Notes under the pieces: model-generated
The model's input: only the letters and a program-made list of their open reading frames with translations
The model's database searches: none
What the model was told of the DNA's origin: nothing
Position numbers and translations under genes: made by a program
NCBI RefSeq assembly: GCF_040222615.1
Contig: NZ_JAVKCQ010000019.1
Span: 21,979-85,978, forward strand
Length of the DNA: 64,000 bases
DNA from: Haliea sp.
GTDB lineage: Bacteria; Pseudomonadota; Gammaproteobacteria; Pseudomonadales; Halieaceae
Direction of reading: 5' to 3'
Shown: positions 4,231 through 23,047 of the stretch, in pieces
Layout of the letters: every line of letters begins with the position of its first letter
Position numbering within the stretch: the first letter of the stretch is position 1

Positions 4231-5010
4231 CTATTCGAGTACGCGCGGGTCGCGGCGGATTTCCCGTCTGGCCATCGCTTCCCACAGGAAGGGAAAGCCG
4301 TTGCCGTCGGTCATTTTGCCGGTGGCCGCGGCCGTTTGCGCATCCAGCGGCTTGCCGTTGCCGAGTGCTTCCACGCGCCAGGCCAGGCGGCAGCGCCATT
4401 CCAGGGTGATGGCACGCAGGTGGGCCTGGCGCACGTCCTTGCCGACCAGGAATACGCCGTGATTGGCAAGCAGGGCCCATTTGTGTTCGCCCAGTGCCTC
4501 GACGGCGGCGCGGCCCTCCTTCTCGTCGTTTACGGTGCCGTGGTACTCGTCGAACACGACCGGGTCGCTGTCCACCAGCGCCGAGGTCTGGTCGTAGATG
4601 GGCGGTACCCGCTTGCAGGCGGCCCAGACCGAACCCCACTCCGGGTGATTGTGGATCACCACCCGCACATCCTCCCGCAGGCTGTGCATGTCGCGGTGCA
4701 CGTTGATGGCCGGGGTGACGTTCCAGCGGCCGTCGAGAATCCTGCCCTCTTCGTTGATGGTGAGGATGTCCGAGGCGCAGACTTCGTCCCAGGCCAGCTC
4801 CCAGGGGTTGACCAGCATGGTGCCGTCGTCCTGGCGCAGGGTGATGTGGCCGGCAATGTGATCGTTGTAGCCTTCCCGGAACAGCACCCGGCACAGCAGG
4901 GCCAGCTCCTGGTGTGGGTTCAGGGTCGGCAGTGTGGGATAGCGGCCGGGATTGGGCACCAGCGGGGCCAGTACTTTCCAGTTGAGGCTGGGATCATTCT
5001 GGTAATTCAT
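4231..5010 (-). CDS. Class II aldolase/adducin-family protein
   Basis: GHITLR, VVIHNHP, LLANHGV Zn-binding His motifs. 259 aa. Confidence 0.88.
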   Translation of the reverse strand: MNYQNDPSLNWKVLAPLVPNPGRYPTLPTLNPHQELALLCRVLFREGYNDHIAGHITLRQDDGTMLVNPWELAWDEVCASDILTINEEGRILDGRWNVTPAINVHRDMHSLREDVRVVIHNHPEWGSVWAACKRVPPIYDQTSALVDSDPVVFDEYHGTVNDEKEGRAAVEALGEHKWALLANHGVFLVGKDVRQAHLRAITLEWRCRLAWRVEALGNGKPLDAQTAAATGKMTDGNGFPFLWEAMARREIRRDPRVLE

Positions 5011-17189: not shown

Positions 17190-19073
17190 CTATGCTAGCG
17201 CGACTGCCTGGATAGAAGAAGAGGGCGCAGGCACAAGTTCGTCAATTACACCCCGCAACCAACTGCCACCGTCGGCATCCTTGAGTATGTCGCCCACGCC
17301 CCCGGGGTGCCGGATCCGGAGGCTGCAGTCGGTGCTGGCAAAATCCCCGGGCGCCGGCAGGTTCATGGACGACAGGGCGGCACATACCCGGTCGGCCCGA
17401 AAATCGAAGCTTGCCACCAGTTCCTGCTCACCGCCGCTGCGGGGGCACAGCGCACTGTCGAGTGCCAGCACCTGCAGCGCCGCCGTCGGGTCGCTGTGGT
17501 TTTGCCGGCAGTGCTCCTCCAGCAGTGCGGCCAGAATTTTGTACAGACGCTCCCGGTCCGCCAGCGCCGCCAGGTAAATGGCATTGCGGTTTTCGTAGAG
17601 GGACATGCGGTCGCTCGCGTCCAGGGTCACCAGCGTCGTCCGCAGTGACCCCACCACTGCCCGCAGGCACTCCCGCAACAGGGGTGACACCGGTACCTCG
17701 CCCTGCAGCGCCAGCAGCCGCGTGGTCAGCGGCATGATATGGCCATGGACCAGCAGGATGTGGGCGCTGATCAGGAAGTAGCCCTCCTCGCCCTCGTCCC
17801 GGGAAAAACTGTGGCAGCCAACTACATATTCACCCTTGGCCTTGCCGTAGCCCGCCACCGGTATCGCCTCGATGCGGTACTCATCCCGGCGGGCGTAGAA
17901 CTCGGTGCCGGGCAACAGGGTGTAGCCGAAGATATTGATATTCGGGAAGGTAGCCAGCAGGGTGTCCAGATTGCGTTCGAAGTCCGCCAGGTTGTCTCCG
18001 GGCAGGCCCCAGATCAGTTCTGCGGCGATAGGCACGCCCTGCTCTGACATCTGCCTGGCGATGGGCTGGTACTCGTTGGCGCTCATGTTCTGGCGGTTGC
18101 TCAGGCGCAGTGCCTCCGGGGTCAGGGTCTGCAGCGCCAGCTGGTAGTGCGGCAGCAGCTGGTTGCGGTGCAGCAGGAGGGCGATTTCCTGTACCTGGCG
18201 GCTGTGTTTCTTGGACCAGGAGGTGGCGAAGCTGCGCGGCAGGCCGCTGCGCTGCTTTAATTCCACAATCATCTGCGCCTTGGCCAGGTCCTGTTTCAGG
18301 GCGCCAAAATTGGAGTCTGCGAGCCAGATGTTGGCGATGCCGGCGGCGGTGATCTTCTCCCAATCGTCGCGGATCCGCGGCAGGGACCACTGGTACATCT
18401 TGCTGCCAATGGCGCCGGTGCCCCATTCGCAAAAAGCGCATTTGAAGGGGCAGCCGCGGCTGGTTTCATAGGCGATGGCGTCATAGCGGGGGGATCCGTC
18501 CGGGTGAGTCAGTTCCAGCACATCAAGCGGCGAGGGAAACCGGTCCAGCTCCTGGCAGCGCGCCCGGGCCCGGGTGCGCACCACGCGCCCGCCGTCGAGA
18601 AAGGCCAGGCCGTCGATCTCGTGCCAGGCACTTTTACCGTTGCTGTCGAGGAATTCCTGGAAGGTCACTTCGGCCTCGCCCATGAAGATGACATCCAGCG
18701 CCTCGGCCCCAAGATAGTCCTCCGCCTGCTGCACATGGGGGCCGCCGGCGACCAGGGTCAGCTCCGGCGCCAGCGCCCGCAGCTGGCGAGCAAGGGCCAG
18801 GAATTCGGCCGCATTCCAGGTGTATACGCTGAAGCCCAGCACTGGCTCGAGGCCGCTGGCGATGGCCTCCGCCACCAGCGCCGGACCGGAAACCTGCCAC
18901 GCCGCCAGCCAGCAAGCGATGTCGTCCGAGTGCTGGAAATGCACCAGGTCAATGCGGGTCGACGTTGCCCGGGCGCCGTAGCGGCGGTAGAAAGAGGCCA
19001 GCCCGGCGGTCGTGGTGGGTGGTGCGTTGAACTGCTCTGAGTCCATGCTCAGTAGCCAGACGGGTCGCTGCAA
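17190..19073 (-). CDS. Cobalamin-binding-domain radical SAM enzyme
   Basis: B12-binding domain (GFSVYTWN, VAGGPHV, GEAE), ETSRGCPFKCAFCEW (CxxxCxxC), ADSNFG, ELIWGLPG. TTG start. Confidence 0.9.
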   Translation of the reverse strand: MQRPVWLLSMDSEQFNAPPTTTAGLASFYRRYGARATSTRIDLVHFQHSDDIACWLAAWQVSGPALVAEAIASGLEPVLGFSVYTWNAAEFLALARQLRALAPELTLVAGGPHVQQAEDYLGAEALDVIFMGEAEVTFQEFLDSNGKSAWHEIDGLAFLDGGRVVRTRARARCQELDRFPSPLDVLELTHPDGSPRYDAIAYETSRGCPFKCAFCEWGTGAIGSKMYQWSLPRIRDDWEKITAAGIANIWLADSNFGALKQDLAKAQMIVELKQRSGLPRSFATSWSKKHSRQVQEIALLLHRNQLLPHYQLALQTLTPEALRLSNRQNMSANEYQPIARQMSEQGVPIAAELIWGLPGDNLADFERNLDTLLATFPNINIFGYTLLPGTEFYARRDEYRIEAIPVAGYGKAKGEYVVGCHSFSRDEGEEGYFLISAHILLVHGHIMPLTTRLLALQGEVPVSPLLRECLRAVVGSLRTTLVTLDASDRMSLYENRNAIYLAALADRERLYKILAALLEEHCRQNHSDPTAALQVLALDSALCPRSGGEQELVASFDFRADRVCAALSSMNLPAPGDFASTDCSLRIRHPGGVGDILKDADGGSWLRGVIDELVPAPSSSIQAVALA

Positions 19074-19182
19074 GTGCGTTGCTCCAGGGACTTGGGGTCA
19101 GGGCAATGTAGCGAATCGAGGCATGTTTGCCTACCGGTCATTAGCAGATAAGCTGTGCGGAACTGCCCGGAGAGAACTGATC

Positions 19183-20028
19183 TTGGATACGGAACTGCTG
19201 CGCACTTTCCTCGAGGTGTGCAATACCCGCCATTTTGGCCGCGCCGCCGAAAGCCTGTTCATCACCCAGGCGGCGGTCAGTGCGCGGATCAAGCAGCTGG
19301 AGGAGGCGCTGGGCGTGACCCTGTTCATCCGTCACCGCAACAACATCCAGCTCAGCAGCGAAGGTGAGCGCCTGGTGCCCCATGCGGAAACCGTGTTGCT
19401 GGCGCTGGCCCGCGCCCGCGAGGAGGTGCGGCTGGAAGACGCCCGCAGCAGCCAGTTCTATCTCGGGGTGCGGATTGGTATCTGGAGCCATCCTCTGCAG
19501 CAGCGCCTGCACGCCCTGCATCGGGAGGCCGCGGACCTGGCTCTGCGGATTGAAAGCCGCGAGTCCGGTGAATTGATTCGCAAGCTGCTCGAACGCACCC
19601 TGGACCTGGCCATCGCCTATGAGCCGCCCGGTGTGCCGGAGCTGGAGAGTGTGCCGATCGGCCGTCTGACCCTGCGCCTGTACAGCTCCCGGCCAGATGA
19701 CACGCTGGAAGAAGCGCTGGCCGGTAATTACGTGTTCCTGGACTGGGGCGGCGGCTTTGCCCGCTTTCACGCCAAGCGCTTCGGCGAACAGCGGCCGCCG
19801 CGCCTGTACACCAACCTCAACGGGCTGGCCAGCGACTTCCTGACCGAATTTGGCGGCGCCTGTTTCCTGCCGGCGAGCCTGCTGGATTCCCTGGGGGGTA
19901 TGGGCCTGACGCCTGTCGCCACGGCGCCCAGCTTCAGTCGACCGCTGAATCTTGTCTACCACAGCAGCTCACCCAAGCGCGCCCAGATTGACCGGGTGGC
20001 AAGGTATTTCCAGGGGGTGGAGGTCTAA
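19183..20028 (+). CDS. hdfR: LysR-family regulator HdfR-like
   Basis: TTG start after GGAGAG gives MDTELLRTFLEVCNTRHFGRAAESLFITQAAVSARIKQLE, the HdfR N-terminal signature. 281 aa. Confidence 0.8.
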   Translation: MDTELLRTFLEVCNTRHFGRAAESLFITQAAVSARIKQLEEALGVTLFIRHRNNIQLSSEGERLVPHAETVLLALARAREEVRLEDARSSQFYLGVRIGIWSHPLQQRLHALHREAADLALRIESRESGELIRKLLERTLDLAIAYEPPGVPELESVPIGRLTLRLYSSRPDDTLEEALAGNYVFLDWGGGFARFHAKRFGEQRPPRLYTNLNGLASDFLTEFGGACFLPASLLDSLGGMGLTPVATAPSFSRPLNLVYHSSSPKRAQIDRVARYFQGVEV

Positions 20029-20036
20029 CAGGGGGT

Positions 20037-20065
20037 AAAAAAGAGGGTCGCTGTCGCGAGCGACC
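20037..20065 (-). terminator. Rho-independent terminator of the small acidic-protein gene
   Basis: On minus: GGTCGCT-CGCGAC-AGCGACC followed by CTCTTTTTT. Confidence 0.7.
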
Positions 20066-20117
20066 TGCTCCGGTGCCGGCAGAAAGACGGGTGCACAGGG
20101 GCACCCGCCAGCGGGGA

Positions 20118-20339
20118 CTAGAAGTCCCCGAGTTCCAGGTCGTAGTAGCCCAGCTCTTCGCGCAAACGCCGCTGTTCTATGCGCTGTTCTGCACGGCGAC
20201 GTTTTTCGGCGAGGCGCTGTTTCTCGGTGGAAACCGTGACGACCTCGTCAAAATCGTCGTCTGCCATATCGAGCAGTGCGGGCTCGAATATATCGTCGAG
20301 ACCATCACTGCTGGCGGGCTCTTGTGTGCGTTCAGTCAT
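20118..20339 (-). CDS. Small acidic/basic protein, PA3496-like
   Basis: RBS GGAGGTGA, acidic N-half, KRRRAEQRIEQRRLREELGYYD C-terminus, own terminator. Confidence 0.7.
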   Translation of the reverse strand: MTERTQEPASSDGLDDIFEPALLDMADDDFDEVVTVSTEKQRLAEKRRRAEQRIEQRRLREELGYYDLELGDF

Positions 20340-20475
20340 AAATCACCTCCGGACGATTTACAGCCTTGAATTTCGGCGCAATATCACTCAGTGATTTCAG
20401 CGAGTAAATCAAAATTTTATTGGATTTGTGACAAAAATATTTTGTCGATTGGGCTGCTGGGCAATAGTTGTTTAT

Positions 20476-20570
20476 GGAAAGGCGGCCCGTGCCCTACCCT
20501 GGGCTCCCTGCACTCGCGGCTACGTCCCTGTAGTCTGTCGTCCCTGACGGTGTTGCCAGCGGGCCGCCTG
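20476..20570 (-). ncRNA. Candidate CsrA/RsmA-binding small RNA (Csr/Rsm-like)
   Basis: 9-bp closing stem GGCGGCCCG/CGGGCCGCC enclosing three CAGGGA motifs, two in hairpin loops (GTC-AGGGAC-GAC; CTAC-AGGGAC-GTAG). Starts at the predicted +1 of a sigma54 promoter and is followed by UUUCC. Confidence 0.55.
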
Positions 20571-20580
20571 CACTAAAGAG

Positions 20581-20596
20581 AGCAAGAGCCGTGCCA
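20581..20596 (-). promoter_or_regulatory. sigma54 (RpoN) -24/-12 promoter
   Basis: TGGCACGGCTCTTGCT on minus fits TGGCACG-N4-TTGCW with the exact 10-bp GG-to-GC spacing. Confidence 0.75.
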
Positions 20597-20696
20597 GCTA
20601 CCAGTGAGGGCAAGAGCCCGCGCTAGCGGCGATTCGGGGGTCAGTGTGCTGTCCGACACCGCGTCTGCGTACGTGTCCGGCCATGTCCGGGGAGCA

Positions 20697-21221
20697 TCAG
20701 CTGGCGCCCCGCACCCGCGCCAGGATCTCGAGGGCGATTTCCTGCGGGTCGCGCTGCCCGGCTGCAATGGTGATGTCTGCGTGCCGTTCGTATAGAGGTG
20801 TGCGCTCGCGATAGACATCGGCAAAGGTGTGGCCGGCGTCGCTGGCAATGCCGCGTGGCGGCGCAGCCGCGACACGCGCCTCCAGCACCGCCAGCGGCAC
20901 ATTGAGGTAGATCACCGGCCCTGCCCGGCGCAGGCGCTGCATGATGCGGTCACTGTAGACCACGCTGCCACCGGTGGCGATGATGCTGTTTTCCAGGGGC
21001 ACCGACAGCAGAACCTCTTCTTCCAGCCCGCGCAGGGCGATATGGCCGCGGCTGTCGATGATCTCCTGCAGGGTGGCGCCCGCCCGGAGCTGGATTTCCA
21101 GGTCGGTGTCGTTGAAGGCGAGTCCTGCGAGCTTTGCCAGCAATACGCCCACGGTACTTTTGCCTGCACCGGGCATGCCGATCAGGCTGATGGTGCGCGC
21201 CTGCGCCGGGTCGTTCGCCAT
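20697..21221 (-). CDS. Shikimate kinase (stand-alone)
   Basis: ISLIGMPGAGKSTVG, DTD, IIATGGSVV, VIYL, R..LYE..AD. Confidence 0.88.
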   Translation of the reverse strand: MANDPAQARTISLIGMPGAGKSTVGVLLAKLAGLAFNDTDLEIQLRAGATLQEIIDSRGHIALRGLEEEVLLSVPLENSIIATGGSVVYSDRIMQRLRRAGPVIYLNVPLAVLEARVAAAPPRGIASDAGHTFADVYRERTPLYERHADITIAAGQRDPQEIALEILARVRGAS

Positions 21222-22480: not shown

Positions 22481-23047
22481 TCAGTGGGCCCAGGCTCGCA
22501 GGGTCCGGAACTGCTGTGACAGGTAATCCATCTGGTCTGCCAGCACCCGCTCCTTGGCCAGGAAATGCCACTCCCAGGTGTTGGGCCGGAACGGCACCGC
22601 CAGCAGGGGCATGCCGGCTTCCTCGGGTGTGCGGTTGTCCTTGGCCCAGTTGCAGCGACGGCAGGCGGCGACCACGTTTTCCCAGCGGTCGCGACCGCCG
22701 CGGGAAGTGGGCAGTACGTGGTCCCGGGTCAATTCCGCGCGGGCAAACTGCTGCCCGCAGTAGAGGCAGCGGTGGCCATCCCGGCGGAACAGGGTACGGT
22801 TGCACAGCGGCAGGCTGAAATCGCTGCGGATGCGGCCCTGCAGGGCGATGATCGGTTGCATGTCGATACGGGAGCGCAGGCCGGTGCGACGCTGTACTCC
22901 GCCCATCATCGGCGGCAAAGGGTCCCCGACGCCGTAGATGACGTCGCCGCGAGCGTAGGCGGTCAGGGCTTCGTGGGCCGTGATCCAACCGCGTGGTTGA
23001 CCCGCTACGTCCAGTTTCAGGATGTGCTGCATGGGTGGCCACTCCAT
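22481..23047 (-). CDS. HNH endonuclease (stand-alone, McrA-like HNH domain)
   Basis: LFRRDGHRCLYCG, TRDHVLP.SRGG...WENVVAACRRCN..K. Confidence 0.9.
   Translation of the reverse strand: MEWPPMQHILKLDVAGQPRGWITAHEALTAYARGDVIYGVGDPLPPMMGGVQRRTGLRSRIDMQPIIALQGRIRSDFSLPLCNRTLFRRDGHRCLYCGQQFARAELTRDHVLPTSRGGRDRWENVVAACRRCNWAKDNRTPEEAGMPLLAVPFRPNTWEWHFLAKERVLADQMDYLSQQFRTLRAWAH

Follow-up and report, generated by a model that had tools for sequence, protein, structure and literature searches.

A candidate sigma-54-controlled RNA family of the Csr/Rsm type in the Halieaceae

A small element on the minus strand of a 64-kb stretch of DNA from Haliea sp. (GCF_040222615.1, contig NZ_JAVKCQ010000019.1, positions 21,979-85,978) belongs to what is probably a family of Csr/Rsm-type RNAs, which would serve as decoys of CsrA and would be produced under the control of sigma-54 and an enhancer-binding protein (EBP). 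The whole stretch is referred to as the window, and coordinates without a contig name are positions within it. We computed sequence features, conservation, covariation, distribution and gene content. A preliminary description of the locus had proposed a CsrA sponge with a sigma-54 input, and this proposal is supported computationally by the conserved promoter with its upstream site, by covariation, by loops of the type ANGGAN, by the presence of csrA and rpoN and by the lack of a detectable GacA route.

A conserved element behind a sigma-54 promoter

The element is a genuine feature beyond chance, because it is conserved across 20 genera with compensatory changes. All parts announced in the preliminary description were located on the minus strand (Table 1): the consensus sigma-54 promoter, the 9-bp stem around three CAGGGA motifs, of which two lie in stem-loops, and the UUUCC that follows the stem. 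The predicted transcription start near 20570 was likewise reproduced: a distance of 12 nt, measured from the final C in the TTGC of the -12 element, places it 1-2 nt ahead of the closing stem. Three CAGGGA motifs within 60 nt occur at this single site when both strands of the window are considered. The fold of the element reaches -42.9 kcal/mol and is more stable than that of shuffles (z = -2.3), and the open reading frames (ORFs) overlapping the element are mechanical calls, none of which is coding-like. Covariance models gave scores of 113 bits (R1, built from the RNA part only) and 99 bits (R2, a refined version of R1) for positions 20476..20570.

Table 1 Features of the RNA locus and of the adjoining gene in the Haliea sp. 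window, with covariation counts for the helices.
Feature	Positions	Strand	Cells paired	Compensatory changes	Remarks
Upstream activator site	20668..20689	-			Pair of overlapping palindrome-like 12-bp units; about -98 to -119 relative to the predicted start
Activator-site unit CGGACATGGCCG	20689-20678	-
Activator-site unit CGGACACGTACG	20679-20668	-
Extra CGGACA half-site	20659-20648	-
Sigma-54 (-24/-12) promoter TGGCACGGCTCTTGCT	20581..20596	-			Consensus TGGCAY-N5-TTGCW
Predicted small RNA	20476..20570	-			About 95 nt if the 3' end follows the closing stem; 5' end from promoter geometry
P1 closing stem			96%	8/9 pairs (e.g., C-G to U-A in 13 sequences)	9 bp
P1, 5' strand GGCGGCCCG	20560..20568	-
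P1, 3' strand CGGGCCGCC	20481..20489	-			Pairs with 20568-20560
Hairpin 1, GUC[AGGGAC]GAC	20537..20548	-	97%	2/3 pairs	GGA within hexaloop
Hairpin 2, CUAC[AGGGAC]GUAG	20520..20533	-	96%	Double changes in 4/4 pairs	GGA within hexaloop
Third GGA motif GUGCAGGGAG	20504..20513	-			CAGGGA
Hairpin 4, GCCC[AGGGUA]GGGC	20491..20504	-	About 80% in columns	2/3 pairs	Loop GGGU instead of GGA in own genome
Inner helix P2 UUUGCNNN/NNNGCAGG			51-63%	4/5 pairs
UUUCC	20480-20476	-			Immediately 3' of closing stem
AT-rich palindrome GACAAAATATTTTTGTC	20430..20446	-			Between RNA and gene promoter, about 25 bp upstream of -35
Putative sigma-70-type promoter	20380..20408	-			-35 TTTACT 20408-20403, 17-nt spacer, -10 GATATT 20385-20380
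Initiation hairpin UGUAAAUCGU[CCGGAG]GUGAUUUAUG	20337..20362	-			Shine-Dalgarno GGA in hexaloop, AUG in stem
73-aa gene, PA3496 family ('putative envelope integrity protein')	20118..20339	-			NF046101, 48.4 bits, cut-off 22

Evidence from covariation for the closing stem and two hairpins

The covariation analysis suggested for the fold was carried out on an alignment of 63 sequences (A3), which was fitted to the structure of the model and therefore favours that structure. A core of 19 pairs is paired in 92.7% of the alignment cells and shows compensatory changes in 16 of these pairs; not one of 500 shuffles matched it in any of five measures, and sliding the partners by 1-3 columns lowered pairing to 33-50%. 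The stems differ outright among the genera, and the covariation is therefore not an alignment artefact. For hairpin 1 we found the stems GUC/GAC, GCC/GGC, CUC/GAG and UCC/GGA, while hairpin 2 occurs as CUAC/GUAG, GCAC/GUGC, CGAC/GUCG, CCAC/GUGG and GUAC/GUAC. The closing stem and these two hairpins are thus supported by covariation. Hairpin 4, inspected sequence by sequence, is built on CCC/GGG, GCC/GGC, UGCC/GGCA, AACC/GGUU or GACC/GGUC. The inner helix P2 is clear in several genera and weak in Haliea; the third GGA is located at its 3' foot in other genera.

The element is a putative single-copy RNA gene of the Halieaceae

Of 201 Halieaceae genomes, 95, distributed over 20 of 40 genera, contained the element according to model R1, nearly always in one copy. 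A search with R2 through 293 genomes belonging to the order's other families was negative. All of the 14 other Haliea genomes sampled proved positive, and both Haliea salexigens DSM 19537 and Haliea alexandrii LZ-16-2 carry the element. When the core of hairpin 2 was used for exact-pattern scanning, each of the 14 records retrieved bore Haliea or Halieaceae in its title. At the corresponding position, four other genera combine a sigma-54 promoter with a closing stem and with GGA hairpins whose stems differ considerably in sequence. The genome-wide search for further copies was performed by BLAST on the genome of origin (4.09 Mb, 99.6% complete, 63% G+C) and yielded none. Given a single copy per genome and an occurrence restricted to one family, the element is a putative RNA gene of the Halieaceae and not a dispersed repeat.

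This also disposes of membership in a dispersed family, an alternative raised in the preliminary description. In this scenario the element would be one copy of a repeat resembling repetitive extragenic palindromes or miniature inverted-repeat transposable elements, situated behind a chance sigma-54-like sequence. A palindromic repeat whose hairpins carry AUGGAU does exist in the genome, in 12 copies or more, and relatives of it in other genera (L115 and L119) are weak R1 matches. The repeat differs from our element in sequence and has no promoter, whereas the element is single-copy, always occupies the same syntenic place and always comes with its promoter. We regard the repeat explanation as refuted, with next to no probability left to it.

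The dispersed repeat itself is often located at contig ends. Copies lie, for example, at C100:~380-520 and C110:~4850-4960 and on contigs C112, C144, C165, C65 and C176. It is bordered by the terminal inverted repeats GGUCCUUCGACGGAC...GUCCGUCGAAGGACC and forms internal hairpins such as GGCC[AUGGAU]GGCC and CAC[AUGGAC]GUG. These hairpins look like CsrA sites, and many transcripts might carry them.

Promoter and upstream activator site

The promoter was deliberately excluded from the RNA covariance model. The check across orthologous loci revealed that the sigma-54 element is kept: in 62-63 of 65 model matches, the end of TGGCAY-N5-TTGCW lies 9-12 nt ahead of the position at which the model begins. 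The two matches without a promoter are L115 and L119, copies of the dispersed element introduced above. Strict matches to this consensus number 15 on both strands of the 4.09-Mb genome.

Upstream of the promoter, palindromes resembling CGGAC-RY-GTCCG (up to two mismatches) are present in 60 of 63 loci. They are mostly paired, 10 bp apart and positioned at about -97/-107 from the RNA. CGGACA is the most enriched upstream hexamer (55 of 63 loci). The tandem site occurs once in the Haliea sp. genome and is presumed to be the binding site of an EBP. Promoter and upstream site together have the standard anatomy of an enhancer-dependent promoter, which suggests dependence on RpoN. The genome encodes RpoN (a 533-aa ORF with an RpoN box on contig C79) as well as 11 proteins with a Sigma54_activat domain.

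The hairpin loops resemble CsrA sites

Each element contains 3-6 GGA motifs. In 60 of 63 elements, 2-4 of these reside in loops of 5-7 nt on stems of at least 3 bp, i.e., the multiple GGA in short hairpin loops that mark the Csr/Rsm class. The most frequent loops are AGGGAC (30), AGGGAA (30), AGGGAT (21), AAGGAT (18), ATGGAT (10) and ACGGAC (8), in addition to others. A C-G pair closes almost every one of them (C-ANGGAN-G), and the stems measure 3-5 bp. The loop of hairpin 4 reads AGGACC, GGGAU or AGGGAA in close relatives and other genera. CsrA ligands obtained by SELEX have the consensus RUACARGGAUGU; in this set GGA was placed in a hairpin loop in 51 of 55 ligands, 44 had hexaloops, and stems comprised up to 4 bp (PMC7652899). 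Hairpin 2 (UACAGGGACGU) deviates from this consensus by one mismatch. The ANGGAN hexaloops thus match the recognition consensus of CsrA/RsmE, and this resemblance of motifs suggests that CsrA binds the RNA.

A different mode of action would be that of a sigma-54-dependent small RNA (sRNA) which base-pairs to mRNAs or has a protein different from CsrA as its partner, with the GGA loops being incidental. Sigma-54-dependent sRNAs acting by pairing or on other proteins do exist, among them Qrr, NrsZ, GlmY and CrcZ, and a CrcZ-like RNA is encoded in the Haliea sp. genome itself. What is constant across genera in our element, however, is the closing stem and the ANGGAN loops, while all single-stranded linkers vary and no conserved base-pairing seed is visible across genera. 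Furthermore, the C-ANGGAN-G hexaloop is a specific recognition element of CsrA/RsmE. We consider incidental GGA loops very improbable.

The Csr system of the host appears to lack its usual input

The Haliea sp. genome contains one csrA gene (C97:6263-6090), the product of which shares 85% identity with CsrA of E. coli across 52 residues (tblastn). BarA-UvrY orthologues activate the synthesis of Csr sRNAs in many Gammaproteobacteria (PMC7652899). In the Haliea sp. genome, an approximate query for Pseudomonas GacA matched receiver domains only, with about 30% identity, and the best match was NtrC. None of the ten ORFs with a GerE domain coincides with a receiver-domain match, so that there is no response regulator combining REC and GerE; the sole contig carrying both a GerE ORF and a receiver match is C106, where they are about 29 kb apart. 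No GacA/UvrY was therefore detected. A GacA box followed by a GGA cluster is not present anywhere in the genome, and sigma-70-like promoter calling in the region 20000-21000 yielded no call. Hence, none of the parts of canonical GacA/UvrY wiring, i.e., the box, a sigma-70 promoter and a GacA/UvrY orthologue, was found for the element. FliW was not found in the genome either. The genome-wide best scores were 18.9 bits for RsmY (cut-off 57) and 18.6 bits for RsmZ (cut-off 44), both away from the locus. Note that a genome-wide scan for GGA hairpins was uninformative, as it returned 3878 clusters in a genome of 63% G+C. From these searches, the genome appears to lack the GacA/UvrY input, and the only evident multi-GGA RNA gene is preceded by a sigma-54 promoter.

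A scan for ANGGA density drew attention to C218:24960-25110, which has a second copy at C17:17235-17488 (83% identical). This array consists of repeats of about 22 nt, reading CUUCUUCCCC-AUGGAG on one strand and GGGGAGAAGA on the other, and lies 3' of paralogous minus-strand genes. It was not adopted as a Csr RNA: it is a two-copy repeat, no Rfam family matches it, and its conservation within the genus is poor.

Comparison with known RNAs

The Infernal/Rfam search that had been proposed for the element was run, and no Rfam family matches it. With Rfam 15, no family reached its gathering score in the window, to which the search with the CsrB, CsrC and RsmX models was confined. A permissive search (E up to 10, 20300-20750) returned only narK, PhotoRC-I and MIAT, all far below cut-off. 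The narK RNA motif (RF03032) was matched weakly (16.1 bits, E = 1.2, gathering score 43.2). Its consensus opens with GGCAC-N5-UUGCU, which resembles a sigma-54 promoter and carries the match, while the remaining structure does not fit the element. A literature search in a limited collection retrieved no sigma-54-driven Csr/Rsm RNA and nothing on sRNAs of Halieaceae; PMC8249394, examined as a possible precedent for such an RNA, is not one.

The closest functional counterparts would be RsmX, RsmY and RsmZ (RF02144, RF00195, RF00166) along with CsrB and CsrC. Like the element, they present several GGA in short loops of the type (A/U)CANGGANG(U/A), and the action to be expected is titration of CsrA dimers. 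The size is similar to that of RsmX/Y (about 100-130 nt), and the host genome encodes CsrA/RsmA. However, the element has no similarity to any of these RNAs in sequence or by covariance model. They are transcribed from sigma-70 promoters with a GacA/UvrY box (TGTAAG-N6-CTTACA), whereas the element has a sigma-54 promoter and CGGAC-RY-GTCCG, and its host lacks a detectable GacA/UvrY. Moreover, all sites of the element lie inside one long stem, in which the 5' end pairs with the 3' end, and a classical terminator hairpin is often missing.

With respect to the proposed regulation, CrcZ and CrcY of Pseudomonas, which are CbrAB- and sigma-54-dependent decoys in the Hfq/Crc system, offer a parallel. 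Here, too, a two-component or other EBP acts through sigma-54 on an sRNA that sequesters a global translational repressor, and the activator apparently has a very small regulon. CrcZ differs in that it bears A-rich CA motifs for Hfq instead of GGA hairpins, and its activator site (TGTAAC..GTAACA) is not the CGGAC-RY-GTCCG of the element. GlmY of Enterobacteria (GlrR/QseF) and Qrr of Vibrio (LuxO) are further sigma-54-dependent sRNAs with dedicated activators. GlmY is a decoy of RapZ that works by protein mimicry and sequestration. Their structures are unrelated to that of the element and lack GGA loops, and they have another protein partner (GlmY) or act by base-pairing (Qrr). By analogy, the regulatory logic suggested for the element is that of CrcZ and GlmY.

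Candidates for the enhancer-binding protein

Most of the EBPs encoded in the genome could be put aside. NtrC, PspF, PrsR and the PrpR-like, FleQ-like and FleR-like proteins have other evident roles. A PAS-domain EBP on contig C197 was rejected because the RNA is present in all 15 Haliea genomes but this EBP in only two. CbrB, the EBP on contig C171 with a CbrA-type sensor gene upstream, was rejected as well; it has a CrcZ-like target of its own with a different site. As the activator site of CrcZ differs from that of the element, CbrB is unlikely to drive the element.

The CrcZ-like RNA gene is located at C171:11350-11690, downstream of a cbrA/cbrB-like pair and before a pcnB-like gene (assigned by eye). 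It comprises a TGTAAC..GTAACA site, the sigma-54 promoter CTGGCACAGGCTCTGCA and the CA motifs AACAAUAA and AAUAACAAUAACA. The Pseudomonas CbrAB-CrcZ module seems to be conserved in Haliea.

The first candidate activator is a PilR-like regulator on contig C218, whose gene adjoins a gene of the size of a sensor kinase as well as one for a minor pilin. Both a sigma-54 promoter and the CGGAC-RY-GTCCG motif are missing from the pilin gene. The PilR consensus TGT-N11-ACA (PMC8035640) shows no obvious fit to the activator site of the element, and PilR is kept as a tentative candidate. The second candidate is encoded in an operon (C30:5354-8361) in which the EBP gene is followed by one for a Hanks-type Ser/Thr kinase whose C-terminal part is membrane/periplasmic. 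The N-terminal domain of this EBP looks FHA-like by eye. The operon is conserved in 183 of 201 Halieaceae genomes, and the phylogenetic profile of the EBP is uninformative because this protein is almost universal in the family.

The adjoining PA3496-family gene and the 3' end of the RNA

The PA3496-family gene adjoins the RNA and is co-oriented with it in 55 of 55 loci, and the distance from the RNA to the AUG is constrained (mostly 123-132 nt). In 44 of 55 loci, the RNA is itself preceded by a shikimate-kinase-like gene. Between the RNA and the gene, a pair of hexamers is kept across genera at a fixed spacing of 17 nt while the spacer sequence varies; these probably constitute the -35 and -10 regions of the gene's own sigma-70-type promoter. 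The stretch between the RNA and this pair is not conserved in sequence. Other genera have palindromes of different sequence in the place of the AT-rich palindrome listed in Table 1 (GATAAAT..ATTTTATC, CGACAAA..TTTGTCG). The palindrome probably serves a dimeric regulator as operator, or could form a weak RNA hairpin. One candidate regulator for such an operator is the product of the convergent HdfR-like LysR gene at 19012-20028. At the start of the PA3496-family gene, an initiation hairpin of the form UGUAAAUCAU[CNGGAG]GUGAUUUAUG with 7-10 bp is present in 55 of 61 Halieaceae loci. It is likely a candidate CsrA target beside the putative decoy.

Ahead of the sigma-70-type promoter, some genera possess a run of U that immediately follows the closing stem, or else an additional hairpin with a U-run. 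The 3' end of the RNA may arise by termination at the closing stem, by Rho-dependent termination or by exonucleolytic trimming to the GC-rich stem.

Several points weigh against a trans-acting CsrA decoy under sigma-54 control. CsrA binding is deduced from the resemblance of motifs, and in the Haliea sp. genome the element has only three GGA, two of them in hexaloops, while the fourth loop reads GGGU. The lack of other Csr RNAs was judged by simple motif scanning and with the models of RsmY and RsmZ, and the activator has been narrowed down to two candidates. At least four U within about 25 nt after the closing stem were counted in 16 of 63 members, the Haliea sp. element having UUUCC only, and a closing stem that encloses about 70 nt would be an unusual terminator. 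Finally, the invariable neighbourhood of the PA3496-family gene would also fit a role as leader or in cis.

The most serious competing explanation takes up the leader mentioned in the preliminary description: the structure would be the 5' leader of a sigma-54-dependent PA3496-family mRNA on which CsrA acts in cis, so that no decoy in trans exists. CsrA may then form a bridge to the hexaloop with the Shine-Dalgarno sequence, or change the access of Rho or the stability of the RNA, and in this way determine how much of this single gene is translated. A dual role, with a short RNA and a read-through leader, is a variant of this explanation. The adjacency in all loci, the constrained distance and the lack of an obvious intrinsic terminator in most members speak in its favour, and the GGA hexaloop at the initiation site of the gene would suit two-site binding by one CsrA dimer. 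The explanation is weakened by the conserved -35/-10 pair between structure and gene, which would give the gene its own start, by the U-runs or hairpin plus U-run ahead of this promoter in some genera and by the unconserved spacer from the structure to the promoter. In addition, 3-4 optimal hexaloop sites in a closed domain are the anatomy of RsmX/Y-type decoys and not of known CsrA-regulated leaders. All in all, we judge a leader unlikely, though it clearly deserves more weight than incidental GGA loops.

Proposed mechanism and implications

Transcription, dependence on RpoN and an activator, CsrA binding and the decoy effect are predicted here from sequence data, and the preferred reading as a CsrA decoy can be phrased as follows. 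An EBP would bind the tandem CGGAC-RY-GTCCG site about 100 bp upstream and switch on sigma-54 RNA polymerase at TGGCAC-N5-TTGC. Transcription would start 1-2 nt ahead of the GC-rich closing stem and yield a non-coding RNA of about 95-105 nt, which would display 3-4 short hairpins with C-G-closed ANGGAN loops and one GGA at a helix junction. Each RNA molecule could tie up about two CsrA dimers, and mRNAs repressed by CsrA would be relieved. The neighbouring PA3496-family gene is probably among the CsrA-controlled targets because its Shine-Dalgarno GGA sits in a hexaloop.

Since csrA is present without detectable GacA/UvrY, FliW, RsmY or RsmZ, the sigma-54 activator may replace the GacS/GacA input. 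Control of CsrA/RsmA by decoy RNAs via GacA/UvrY is described as the rule in well-studied gammaproteobacteria (PMC7652899). A more far-reaching and rather speculative version, to which we give somewhat less than even chances, holds that Halieaceae have replaced GacS/GacA (BarA/UvrY) altogether: a dedicated EBP would have the RNA gene as its only strong target, the RNA would be the main CsrA antagonist, and together with a hard-wired neighbour, a CsrA-repressed gene for a small envelope protein, they would form a self-contained module of sensor, decoy and target. The PilR-like regulator and the EBP with the Ser/Thr kinase encoded on C30 are the best candidates for the activator in such a replacement.

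Halieaceae, relatives of OM60/NOR5, are abundant marine bacteria that appear to keep CsrA without GacA/UvrY and FliW, and the RNA family is a concrete candidate for their CsrA antagonist. If this holds true, sigma-54 and EBPs are an added input to the Csr network. Rfam would gain a family supported by covariation and equipped with a clean promoter signature, and the conserved activator site offers a handle on the sensor pathway and the environmental signal.

A further open reading frame in the window

Apart from the RNA locus, the window contains a minus-strand ORF of 188 aa (22481-23047) with an HNH-type nuclease motif, which matches the HNH part of IscB/Cas9 models (NF040563, E = 4.6e-11). 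It stands alone and adjoins gcvT.

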